Both the position numbers and the translations under genes were made by a program. Shown piece by piece: positions 41,739-44,585 of a stretch of 64,000 nucleotides of DNA. Origin of the DNA: an uncultured Candidatus Saccharibacteria bacterium. Lineage in GTDB: Bacteria > Patescibacteriota > Minisyncoccia > Phycocordibacterales > PALSA-1337. The notes beneath the pieces were generated by a model. That model ran no database searches. It worked only from the letters and a program-made list of their open reading frames with translations, and was not told the origin of the DNA. Where the stretch lies: contig CAZRIX010000002.1 of NCBI GenBank assembly GCA_964600255.1, positions 34,067 to 98,066 on the forward strand. Reading direction: 5' to 3'. Numbering within the stretch: the stretch's first letter is position 1; every line of letters begins with the position of its first letter.

Positions 41739-44585
41739 ATGATGTCTAATACTATGAATCCATATGATCATACAAAAGTTGAAAAGAAGTGGCAAAAAGT
41801 TTGGGAATCAAAGAAACCAAACAAGGTAAAAGAGGATCCGAAGAAACCCAAATTCTATGCACTCATAGAATTCCCATTTCCATCTGGTGCAGGACTTCAT
41901 GTAGGTCATATCAGAAGTAATACCGCTATGGATATAATTTCCCGTAAGCGAAGAATGGAAGGTTACAATGTTCTATATCCAATCGGTTGGGATGCATTTG
42001 GATTGCCAACAGAAAACTACGCCATCAAGACTGGTATCCAACCCGCAATAGTTACAAAGCAGAATACTGACAATTTCCGTAAGCAACTGAAAGCTCTAGG
42101 ATTTTCTTTTGACTGGTCACGAGAAATAGATACAACAGATCCAAAATACTACAAATGGACGCAGTGGATTTTCCTACAATTTTTGAAAAAAGGATTGGCA
42201 TACAAAAAGAAGATGATTATAAACTGGTGTCCAAAAGACCTTATCGGACTAGCAAACGAGGAGGTGGTCAACGGATGTTGCGATCGCTGTGGAACACAAG
42301 TTGAGAAAAAAGAAAAAGAGCAGTGGATGCTTGCCATTACCAAGTATGCTGACCGTTTGGACAAAGATCTAGATGAGACTGAATTCCTAGAGAAAATAAA
42401 GATCCAACAAAGAAATTGGATTGGAAAGAGTGAGGGTGCAGAGATTAATTTTCCAATAAAAGGTAGTAGTGACAAAATTAAGGTTTATACAACACGTCCA
42501 GATACATTGTTTGGTGTGACTTATGTTGTACTTGCGCCAGAACACCCCTTTGTCCAGGAATATTCAGGCAAAGCAGAGAATACAATAGAGATTGCAAAGT
42601 ATATTAAAGATGTAAAGAGTAAGACCGACATCGAGCGCACAGACACAAAGAAAGAAAAGACTGGGGTTGAATTAAAGGGAATTAAAGCAATTAACCCAAT
42701 TAATAATGAAGAAATACCTGTCTGGGTGGCAGATTATGTACTAGGTGACTACGGAACTGGGGCTGTTATGGCTGTACCTGCACATGACGAAAGGGATTTT
42801 GAATTTGCAAAAAAATATGGGTTGGGTATGAGACATGTTATTGCTCCAAGTCTAATTGATACAACAAACCCACCACAGCAAGGAAAGCAGGATACTTTTA
42901 GAGAAATAATTCTAGCTATAGTTTACGATCCGAGAAACAAGAAGTACTTAACGCTTAAATGGAAAAATCAGCCTTGGACAACTTTTGTGACCGGCGGAAT
43001 TGAAAAGAATGAGAGCGCATTAGAATCGGCAAAGAGAGAAATCCTGGAAGAAACAGGATATAAGAATATAAGACTTGTAAGAAGCCTTGGAATGTCTGAA
43101 TCCTTTTTCTACGCAGCTCACAAGGGAGTGAACAGAAGGGTTCATGTCGAGCACTTTTTATTTGAATTAGTAGACGATGCAAGAGTGGATTTAGGTGAAG
43201 TAGAAAAAGCTAATTATGATGTGCAGTGGCTATCCACTGAGGAAATTTCAAAAACAAAACTACAGCACGTAGAGTTTAATATGCTTTGGAAACGTATTCA
43301 GACAGGGAACGACACCTTTATTGATTCAGGAACTATTGTAAACTCAGGAGATTTTACAGGCAAGAATTCTGAAGAAGCTAAGAAGGCGATGACCCTAGTA
43401 GCCGGTGGCGAATGGGTTACAAAGTTCAAACTCCGCGATTGGGTTTTCTCTCGCCAGCGATATTGGGGTGAACCTATTCCTGTTGTTCACTGTGAAAAAT
43501 GTGGAATAGTTCCACTTCCAGACAAGGAACTTCCTTTGAAACTTCCTAAAGTTAAAAACTATGCACCTACTCAAAACGGTGAGTCTCCGCTTTCAGCTAT
43601 AGATAAGTGGGTAAATACAAAGTGTCCAAATTGTAAAGGTAAAGCAAAAAGAGAAACTGACACTATGCCAAACTGGGCAGGAAGTAGTTGGTACTATTTG
43701 AGATACACTGATGCAAAAAACAAAAAAGTTTTTGCTGATCCAAAGAACTTAAAATACTGGACTCCAGTAGACTGGTACAACGGTGGTATGGAGCATACAA
43801 CACTTCACTTACTGTATTCCCGATTCTGGCACAAATTCCTTTATGATCTTGGTCTAGTACCTACGAAGGAGCCTTACAAGAAGCGTACATCTCACGGTTT
43901 GATACTTGCTGAAGGAGGGGCAAAGATGTCTAAGTCAGTTGGTAATGTAATCAATCCAGATGATTTCGTAAAAACTGTCGGTGCTGACACGTTGAGAATA
44001 CATGAAATGTTTATGGGTCCATTTGATCAAGCTATTGCATGGGACACAAATAGTATTGCCGGCTCAAGAAGATTCATCGAGAGAGTTTGGAAACTTGTAG
44101 AAAAGATTGGTGAAAATAATATTGAAAAGATAGAGGTGGCAACACACAAAACAATAAAAAAAGTAGGTGAAGATATTGAGAAGATGGGATTCAATACTGC
44201 GATCAGTTCAATCATGATTTTATTGAATGATTTGGAGAAGGAAGACAAGATTCCAAAGGAAATTTATGAGACTTTACTCAAAATTTTGGCCCCCTTTGCA
44301 CCCCATGTTACCGAGGAATTATGGTCATTACTAAAGAACAAAGGTTCAGTTCACGCCAACTCATGGCCTCAGTATGATCCATCAAAACTTATAGAGAGTA
44401 CGGTAAGGATAATGATTCAAGTAAACGGGAAGGTTAGGGGGGAGATGAGTATACCAGCCGACACTGCAGATGCCGAGGTTGAGAAAATGGCTCTAAATAT
44501 GGATGAAATAAAAAAGTGGACATTTGACAAAGAAATTAAAAAGGTTATAGTTATTAAAAATAGGCTGGTGAATATCGTGTTTTAG
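41739..44585 (+). CDS. leuS: Leucyl-tRNA synthetase with an inserted NUDIX hydrolase domain
   Basis: Class I HIGH ([10 protein letters not shown]) and KMSKS motifs, plus the editing-domain region ([18 protein letters not shown]). Inserted at about 42890-43330 is a domain carrying the NUDIX box [23 protein letters not shown]. Confidence 0.95.
   Translation: [948 protein letters not shown]

Follow-up and report, generated by a model that had tools for sequence, protein, structure and literature searches.

Few enzymes known are as conserved as the aminoacyl-tRNA synthetases; a new catalytic domain within one of them is uncommon and tends to be informative about moonlighting. The solved leucyl-tRNA synthetases (LeuRS) of Thermus thermophilus (1H3N, 2BYT) and Escherichia coli (4AQ7, 4ARC) share a single order of domains: a Rossmann core with the HIGH and KMSKS motifs, the CP1 editing domain, an anticodon-binding domain and a C-terminal domain. 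Synthetases are also the main source of diadenosine tetraphosphate and its relatives (Ap4A, Ap4N), which Nudix enzymes cleave asymmetrically into ATP and AMP (PMC13627108). Here we analyzed a 64,000-nucleotide (nt) stretch of DNA from an uncultured Candidatus Saccharibacteria bacterium, one of the ultra-small Patescibacteria (contig CAZRIX010000002.1), referred to as the window. Its leuS gene encodes a LeuRS with the same domain order as the solved enzymes, to which it is 33-37% identical (template modelling score, TM, ~0.8). Unlike them, it carries a NUDIX domain of ~155 amino acids (aa) in the CP1 loop corresponding to Thermus residues 363-377, and it is devoid of the leucine-specific domain. 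Coordinates refer to the window, aa numbering refers to the window LeuRS, and relatives are labelled P (proteins) or L (loci).

The inserted domain was delimited by Pfam, by comparison with insert-free relatives, by an AlphaFold (AF2) model, by Foldseek and by alignment with stand-alone homologs. It occupies a surface loop close to the C-terminal boundary of CP1, shortly past the AHDxRD motif and between Thermus positions 363 and 377. There, ~150 aa take the place of a loop of ~6 residues in insert-free relatives (P0102, P0116) and of 13 residues in Thermus. The Pfam NUDIX model PF00293 matched aa 390-510; it scored 48.4 bits on the full-length sequence and 51.9 bits (E=1e-13) when the insert was scanned alone, for a gathering score of 21.1. 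Together with the Thermus alignment, which places the extra residues, this match confirmed the original prediction, made from the DNA letters alone, of a NUDIX domain lying in frame inside the LeuRS editing region; the three peptides quoted with it are all present in the 948-aa translation. The span then proposed, 42890-43330 (aa ~385-531), does cover the NUDIX core, but the full insert extends over 42846..43325 on the + strand (aa ~370-529).

A full Nudix box had likewise been proposed, and aa 419-441 (42993..43061, + strand) fit GX5EX7REUXEEXGU exactly, with E434, E437 and E438 as the metal-binding residues. In a six-frame scan of the whole window, the only match to the relaxed core E-x7-[RKA]E-x2-EE was this box. 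An AF2 model of the insert alone, built from a 6-sequence alignment, adopted a Nudix fold (predicted local distance difference test, pLDDT, 86; predicted TM score, pTM, 0.81). Foldseek with this model returned 552 PDB matches at E<=1e-3, the 50 best of which were all Nudix-family proteins with a probability of 1.00 and TM of up to 0.74/0.82. The insert is thus modelled as an independently folding alpha/beta/alpha Nudix domain.

The active site of this domain is conserved across relatives. In 97 insert-bearing LeuRS, R388 (nt 42900-42902), G419, G420, E434, E437, G440, K462, N465 and W497 were invariant, E438 (99%), E489, W413, L477 and R466 were 96-99% conserved, and E425, R433 and T439 were 93% conserved. 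The catalytic glutamates of the predicted box therefore survived careful alignment. The glutamate triad was intact in 175 of 179 copies at the insertion site used in the window (site B), in 20 of 23 copies at a second LeuRS site (site A), in all 5 copies found in prolyl-tRNA synthetase (ProRS) and in 28 of 35 stand-alone proteins. Conservation across copies also pointed to a set of subfamily-specific residues between aa 457 and 497 (43107..43229, + strand), namely F457/Y458, K462, N465, R466, E489 and W497. Positions 457 and 458, located 16 and 17 residues past the box, were aromatic in 97-98% of 283 copies from all contexts, and K462, N465 and W497 were near-universal in LeuRS, ProRS and stand-alone copies alike. 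Together with R388, these residues, including the aromatic pair, form the presumed substrate pocket.

Selection on the insert was gauged from nonsynonymous (dN) and synonymous (dS) rates. In two vertically inherited pairs, dN/dS was 0.06 and 0.117 in the insert and 0.023 and 0.06 in the core, dS being similar in both. Such values indicate that the insert is a functional domain under purifying selection. Residue conservation and the low dN/dS (0.06-0.12) combined point to a divalent-cation-dependent pyrophosphohydrolase activity.

An apparent fusion can also arise from a frameshift, a chimeric assembly or a mis-joined contig. This explanation was rejected on several grounds. The reading frame runs unbroken through the insert (41739-44585), as originally claimed. 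Composition is uniform, the G+C of the insert (0.38-0.40) being equal to that of its flanks, and at least 75 species-level genomes hold the embedded arrangement. Purifying selection also acts across the junction. Finally, because the same protein or junction is shared by independent NCBI, ENA and JGI assemblies (P0006, P0007, P0111), an artefact is excluded, and the probability we would still attach to it is negligible.

Judged from its sequence, the host protein is a complete, ordinary bacterial-type LeuRS with intact HIGH, KMSKS and editing-site residues. The leuS open reading frame occupies 41739..44585 on the + strand, stop codon included; the public annotation of a 100% identical protein (P0006) starts 5 codons downstream, at 41754. 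The NCBIfam model TIGR00396 (leuS_bact) matched the protein with 1016.2 bits for a cutoff of 548.4, in two stretches separated by the insert, and Pfam detected tRNA-synt_1, tRNA-synt_1_2, NUDIX and Anticodon_1. When aligned to T. thermophilus LeuRS (1h3n), residues 8-369 corresponded to Thermus 3-363, residues 527-725 to Thermus 377-580 and residues 727-947 to Thermus 635-875. The class I catalytic core contains the HIGH motif (HVGH, aa 54-57; 41898..41909, + strand), whose H54, G56 and H57 are invariant in a 75-sequence alignment, and KMSKS (aa 729-733; 43923..43937, + strand), whose K729, S731, K732 and S733 are invariant in 75 relatives. The N-terminal and central part of CP1 (aa 225-369; 42411..42845, + strand) was identified by Pfam tRNA-synt_1_2 (PF13603; aa 225-373, model positions 1-145 of 185, E=1.3e-65). 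Its editing-site motifs are the T-rich TTRPDT (aa 251-256), the GTG loop (aa 339-341) and AHDERD (aa 348-353). In the same 75 relatives, T251, T252, R253, D255 and T256 are at least 90% conserved, and G339, T340, H349, D350, R352 and D353 are invariant.

Beyond the insert, the native C-terminal module of CP1, G.IVNSG.F.G..SEE ... WVTKFK (aa 530-563; 43326..43427, + strand), aligns to Thermus 377-~410 and leads back into the catalytic core. The anticodon-binding helical domain (PF08264, E=1.2e-24; aa 800-912; 44136..44474, + strand) is followed by the C-terminal tRNA-binding domain up to aa 948. A full-length AF2 model (mean pLDDT 87.2, ~90 across the insert; pTM 0.75) superposed best on the E. 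coli LeuRS-tRNA structure 4AQ7, which represents the aminoacylation state (TM 0.83 on target length). Motif integrity and leuS synteny suggest that the window protein leucylates tRNA and edits mischarged tRNA.

The leucine-specific domain, ~55 residues long in Thermus and E. coli LeuRS, is absent in front of KMSKS. Residues 725-727 bridge Thermus 580 to Thermus 635, so that a few residues (aa 725-728, 43911-43922) join the core to KMSKS. The lengths of insert-free relatives (766-806 aa) imply that they too are without it. Since this domain is dispensable in some LeuRS, as one report indicates for the Mycoplasma mobile enzyme, which does without it (PMC3643597), its absence does not exclude the window protein from the bacterial LeuRS family.

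This absence could be taken to mean that the Nudix fold only binds nucleotide or tRNA and modulates LeuRS, for instance by compensating for the missing domain, and Nudix-fold proteins with non-enzymatic roles do exist (PMC5389931). However, the metal-binding glutamates, needless for binding alone, are conserved near-perfectly, and insert-free relatives persist despite lacking the leucine-specific domain as well. We therefore regard a purely non-catalytic role as very improbable and retain a catalytic one.

Database searches, suggested along with the original prediction, established that NUDIX-bearing LeuRS are widespread in Patescibacteria. A pattern scan was run on one genome per GTDB species and required two exact peptide patterns, so that its counts are lower bounds; it confirmed the NUDIX subfamily at 256 species-level loci or more. 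The best 80 of these 256 loci were all from Patescibacteria by record title, with 75 copies embedded in LeuRS and 5 stand-alone. Their titles named Uhr-, Kaiser-, Zambryski-, Berkel-, Nomura-, Taylor-, Yonath- and Staskawiczbacteria, Paceibacterota and Minisyncoccia, along with many Saccharibacteria. Among the 115 full-length LeuRS closest to that of the window, 84 had one NUDIX at the window's site, 12 had NUDIX at two sites, 18 had none and 1 could not be placed. When 1.84 billion cluster representatives were searched with a profile, 1292 matched, 102 of them at E<=1e-30. All long hosts among the best 150 of the 1292 that were scanned with Pfam or checked for motifs proved to be LeuRS or LeuRS fragments, with the exception of one ProRS (P0259); a few mid-length matches among these 150 were left out of the host check.

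P0259 is an archaeal-type ProRS, in which the NUDIX subfamily lies between the anticodon-binding and C-terminal domains. Five such ProRS were found (P0259, P0275-P0278; 641-674 aa). Their insert-free relatives measure ~485 aa and are labelled Nanoarchaeota or Woesearchaeota (DPANN). ProRS, a class II synthetase, seems to have recruited the domain independently.

A search with the insert sequence returned only stand-alone NUDIX proteins of ~160 aa, 44-48% identical to it. Because the homology spans the N-terminal strand that precedes the Nudix core, an entire stand-alone-type gene has entered LeuRS. The stand-alone proteins of Patescibacteria (P0001-P0005; L053, L058, L067, L077, L080) belong to the same subfamily, with 38-48% identity to the insert over their whole length. 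In common with it they have the N-terminal strand, as well as R, W, GG, ExxEE, K..NR, E and W at the invariant sites. They differ from it in being free genes and, in some cases, in a substitution within the box, Q for the first Glu or A for the Arg. In two Staskawiczbacteria loci (L067 3325-4408 and L053 3397-4408), the stand-alone NUDIX gene lies directly 3' of a gene for a HAD-family phosphatase with faint 5'-nucleotidase similarity and 5' of a cupin gene.

We next turn to the inheritance of the insert, which proved to be decoupled from that of its host. In 3486 pairs of LeuRS with a single insert, the identity of the core did not correlate with that of the insert (Spearman -0.04). Where the cores were at least 0.9 identical, the inserts fell into two classes, with identities of 0.82-1.00 or of 0.31-0.45. 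The closest distinct backbone to that of the window (P0008) provides an example of the second class: the cores are 92% identical and the inserts 38-40%, a value that varies with the method of alignment. Nucleotide identity between the two genes is 80-90%, drops with sharp edges to 43-60% over gene nt ~1040-1650, and then recovers. Together with boundaries at the protein level, this drop defines a hypervariable, replaceable block made up of the NUDIX domain and short native flanks (approximately 42807..43415, + strand; aa ~357-559). The same pattern of high core and low insert identity, with two cassette types, was seen in P0018 and P0019, from samples of the same groundwater well series. Conversely, the cassettes nearest to that of the window reside in far more distant backbones (L002, insert 62% and core 64%; L005, 55% and 47%; L008, 50% and 46%).

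When cassette types were separated at <60% identity, the 29 backbones at least 80% core-identical to the window held nine types and twelve insert-free forms. Types were common to both insertion sites and to a stand-alone gene. Insert-free LeuRS reach 93-95% core identity to insert-bearing ones, and P0057 displays a clean deletion of the cassette block. Insert-free forms of 766 aa have lost the native G.LINSG.F.G module along with NUDIX, and P0102 and P0116 have kept it. Because that native module is also gone, most insert-free forms are deletions rather than ancestral states. Loss in backbones with 93-95% core identity indicates that the insert is dispensable for LeuRS.

Vertical inheritance with a merely faster insert was examined as an alternative and rejected, on the basis of the bimodal identities and of the closer cassettes found in distant backbones. 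In replaced pairs, insert dN was 0.64-0.65 and core dN 0.03-0.05, for which the vertical rate predicts an insert dN of ~0.06-0.16; insert dN thus reached 14-21 times core dN, as compared to ~2-2.5 times in vertical pairs. The simplest reading of these sequences is repeated lateral replacement by recombination in conserved flanks, together with recurrent loss.

Such turnover could reflect an arms race, the insert being a cassette that acts as decoy, sensor or destroyer of a nucleotide signal or toxin which phages, hosts or competitors direct against the synthetase or its tRNA, with surfaces diversifying around a fixed active site. The decoupled histories of core and insert, with their sharp breakpoints, are in line with a role in conflict, as are the nine types and 12 losses in 29 backbones, the two types in one well series, and catalytic residues that stay fixed at the high insert dN of replaced pairs. 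Yet vertical pairs are under ordinary purifying selection, not positive selection, no defence-island context surrounded leuS at the loci viewed, and similarity to PADLOC and PHROGs models was generic only (PDC-S07, 20.6 bits, E=6.6e-5). It is also conceivable that a dispensable module turns over neutrally, by gain, loss and recombination. We consider a conflict role improbable.

Further hydrolases were found in longer relatives. LeuRS of 1110-1360 aa (P0027, P0043, P0050, P0067, P0091, P0126, P0127, P0171, P0179) carry 2-3 NUDIX domains and/or other hydrolases, with three NUDIX domains each in P0126, P0127 and P0179. The additional domains are an alpha/beta-hydrolase (Ser_hydrolase, PF06821) or a HAD phosphatase (PF13419). 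Two further insertion sites are used, one directly before the editing domain and the other downstream of the RDW...SRQRYWG motif; in P0171, NUDIX is present solely at the upstream site, just before the editing domain. NUDIX copies within one LeuRS are 26-45% identical to each other and up to ~70% identical to copies in other LeuRS. Since they diverge within a protein and match more closely across proteins, they are old, retained paralogs.

The presence of PF06821 and PF13419 domains at two further LeuRS sites raises the main rival explanation, in which the NUDIX domain serves generally in salvage or in cleaning up the nucleotide pool or metabolites and is mechanistically unrelated to LeuRS, a tolerant CP1 surface loop of this essential and constitutively expressed protein having been its landing pad in a gene-poor genome. 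That members exist as stand-alone proteins of ~160 aa with intact motifs, and that the insert can be lost while leuS is kept, fit this explanation. So does the position of the stand-alone gene after a HAD phosphatase gene in the two Staskawiczbacteria loci, which would suit a nucleotide-to-nucleoside route; however, no orthology could be detected between this HAD and the one fused to LeuRS (E=2.6). Also against a mere hitch-hiker, hosts among the checked proteins of the best 150 of 1292 matches were LeuRS and one ProRS, not random essential proteins, and permissiveness alone hardly explains insertion into both class I and class II synthetases or the retention of 2-3 diverged paralogs. We view this rival as unlikely, though it deserves serious attention.

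Comparison with characterized Nudix enzymes left the substrate class broad. Foldseek neighbours of the insert included an Enterococcus faecalis protein (2AZW, TM 0.74/0.81), E. coli RppH (7SP3, bound to Ap4A), NudI and NudB, as well as the Ap4A hydrolases 3I7U (TM 0.70/0.82, 18% identity), 4MPO, 4IJX and 5CFJ; the TM of 3I7U is no better than that of RppH, NudI, NudB or 2AZW. In profile searches against PDB sequences, the matches to NudB (2O1C) and to the Ap4A hydrolases of lupin (E=1.5e-5) and Aquifex (E=4.8e-5) were confined to the box region. Assignment of a substrate from curated models was attempted and abandoned, NCBIfam, profile-versus-PDB and Foldseek results all amounting to generic or box-level similarity to several Nudix classes. 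ApnA hydrolases possess a conserved X-loop aromatic residue, a Tyr, for specificity (PMC5389931). The candidate equivalent in the insert, position 458 (17 residues past the box), is Tyr in the window and 98% aromatic overall, with Tyr and Phe in about equal shares; the specificity Tyr is thus not strictly kept. The counterpart of position 458 in human NUDT2 would be Tyr87.

The reading we favour, with a probability of roughly 55%, is that the insert is an autonomous metal-dependent pyrophosphohydrolase tethered to LeuRS, acting on a nucleoside-polyphosphate-type substrate and behaving as an accessory, laterally replaced cassette. A stand-alone-type NUDIX domain (~155 aa) has been inserted into the CP1 surface loop of an ordinary LeuRS, where it keeps the Mg2+-binding REx2EE glutamates and the subfamily pocket. 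It would most likely not be a step of aminoacylation or editing. Because of the basic and aromatic pocket residues and of the nearest solved folds, its substrate may be of the nucleoside-polyphosphate type: a dinucleoside polyphosphate (ApnN), a nucleoside triphosphate (NTP) or a 5'-polyphosphorylated RNA end. The module is lost in some backbones, duplicated in others and, on the simplest reading, swapped by recombination in conserved flanks.

Within this reading, the leading specific idea is that Ap4N is the substrate and is cleared in cis. Reaction of the LeuRS aminoacyl-adenylate with a nucleoside triphosphate would yield Ap4A or Ap4N as a by-product, which the tethered domain would cleave to ATP (or NTP) and AMP. 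Ap4N clearance leads because the subfamily is restricted to synthetase hosts, of class I as well as class II; as a specific assignment it stays tentative, and we would sooner expect it to fail than to hold.

Several observations weigh against a tethered nucleoside-polyphosphate hydrolase coupled to LeuRS. No curated NCBIfam Nudix subfamily model reached its cutoff on the window protein: NudB (NF006961) gave 24.1 bits for a cutoff of 103, NudE 24 for 169, and the RppH models NF001936 and NF001938 22.2 for 118 and 19.6 for 116. The nearest solved folds are 17-23% identical to the insert and cover several substrate classes. Loss and swapping among nine types in one backbone clade show LeuRS without need of the domain, and alpha/beta-hydrolase and HAD domains occur at other LeuRS sites; a permissive scaffold would account for both observations no less well than coupling. 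Among the genomic neighbours of stand-alone homologs, no link to a synthetase or to Ap4A was seen, and contexts other than the HAD-cupin one were unrelated. To our knowledge, LeuRS is not among the strongest producers of Ap4A. Taken together, breadth, dispensability, cassette exchange and other hydrolase inserts weaken the case for a tight mechanistic coupling to LeuRS catalysis.

Another rival reading is that the domain is an RNA-end enzyme, a pyrophosphohydrolase or decapping enzyme like RppH or Dcp2, with substrates recruited by the tRNA-binding surface of the synthetase. It would attack 5' termini (5'-ppp, NAD or Np4 caps) of tRNA(Leu) or of further RNAs. Structure and sequence comparisons both place E. 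coli RppH high among the neighbours of the insert, second copies in some LeuRS give faint matches to Nudt16-like (decapping) proteins, and both known hosts bind tRNA. In the editing-complex structures 2BYT and 4ARC, CP1 reportedly adjoins the acceptor end of the tRNA, near its 5' end, which counts in favour of such a role. On the other hand, the RppH models fall far under cutoff (22 bits versus 118), mature tRNA bears a 5' monophosphate after RNase P, and the insertion in ProRS, which separates the anticodon-binding domain from the C-terminal one, is remote from the acceptor end. Such a role on tRNA or other RNA ends thus appears to us a long shot.

Around leuS, the gene order YchF - EamA - leuS - sigma70-like (sigma70_r4/HARE-HTH) - DUF8128 - YceG is common to insert-bearing orthologs. 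From this conserved neighbourhood we infer that the window leuS is the housekeeping copy and not a paralog. The uncharacterized DUF8128 protein (PF26449) is encoded two genes 3' of leuS by a 429-aa open reading frame (45799-47088); the order leuS - sigma70_r4/HARE-HTH - DUF8128 - YceG was found in the window, L082 and L084, and the start of DUF8128 is visible in L083. The only insert-free locus fetched, that of P0057, ends just past leuS and differs in its upstream genes: a phage-integrase-family gene and a small open reading frame (L085 1250-2167) lie directly 5' of leuS in place of YchF and EamA. These differences are a hint that DNA next to this cassette-less leuS was rearranged.

The intergenic region upstream of leuS (41322-41738) is GC-rich, at 0.47-0.49 as compared to 0.39 nearby. 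It includes, outside the fusion, a structured 5' leader of leuS (41548..41738, + strand, or up to 41745 in a longer delimitation), which folds far better than shuffled sequences (z = -4.08, 0 of 200 as stable). A promoter-like site (41513-41541) precedes this leader, which ends in a hairpin resembling a terminator (41700-41735), 4 nt ahead of the ATG. The leader may be regulatory, as an attenuator or leader. No Rfam family, T-box included, matched it. Its sole conserved stretch is 42 nt long, is also present upstream of leuS in L052, and holds UGGUGGUGC (about 41639-41647), reminiscent of a T-box bulge.

The original prediction presented the architecture as undescribed, and full-text literature searches agreed, retrieving no description of a LeuRS-NUDIX, ProRS-NUDIX or any other synthetase-NUDIX fusion. 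A 2017 review of the Nudix clan never mentions tRNA or synthetases (PMC5389931), and databases label the NUDIX-bearing proteins simply as leucyl-tRNA synthetase. Both component families are well known, the LeuRS-NUDIX architecture is apparently undescribed, and its evolutionary behaviour is unusual.

An active-looking pyrophosphohydrolase sits in an essential LeuRS across a large part of Patescibacteria, whose genomes are minimal and in which each domain kept is likely to matter. Whatever its function, it is unusual for a protein to evolve as an essential conserved backbone with an enzymatic cassette that can be exchanged. There is also a practical side, LeuRS being a phylogenetic marker and CP1 a drug target, and automated annotation makes no mention of the NUDIX domain.

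If Ap4A-type dinucleotides are degraded, a producer of the alarmone would carry its own degrading enzyme, of which we know no earlier case, and the debate as to whether Ap4N is signal or damage would become testable with a single protein. More broadly, one NUDIX subfamily may have been repeatedly recruited into the synthetases of ultra-small symbionts (LeuRS of Patescibacteria, with up to three copies, and ProRS of apparently DPANN archaea). It would be exchanged as a cassette with a fixed active site and destroy a synthetase-made or synthetase-targeting nucleotide, either the Ap4N alarmone or a signal or toxin in host-symbiont-phage conflict. We offer this broader view as doubtful, although, if true, it would be a direct tie between translation and signalling, by alarmones or in conflict, among organisms without most regulatory machinery.

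Finally, two groups of described proteins provide the closest comparisons for the parts and for the whole. With the Nudix Ap4A hydrolases (human NUDT2, Aquifex aq_158 (3I7U) and Chlamydia CT771) and with RppH, the insert has in common the fold, a canonical box, an aromatic residue ~16-17 positions past the box and basic residues that could accommodate a polyphosphate chain. These enzymes, 17-23% identical to the insert, are free-standing, whereas the window domain is embedded in a synthetase; we know of no Nudix Ap4A hydrolase or RppH so embedded. As a synthetase with an extra enzyme domain, the window LeuRS can be set beside the isoleucine--tRNA ligase with an N-acetyltransferase (NF040702), likewise a class I host, and beside the synthetases with appended domains of eukaryotes and Plasmodium. 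It differs from them in that the added domain is of the NUDIX class, lies inside CP1, occurs in multiple copies in some relatives, is accompanied in others by co-inserted alpha/beta-hydrolase or HAD domains, and follows cassette-like dynamics.

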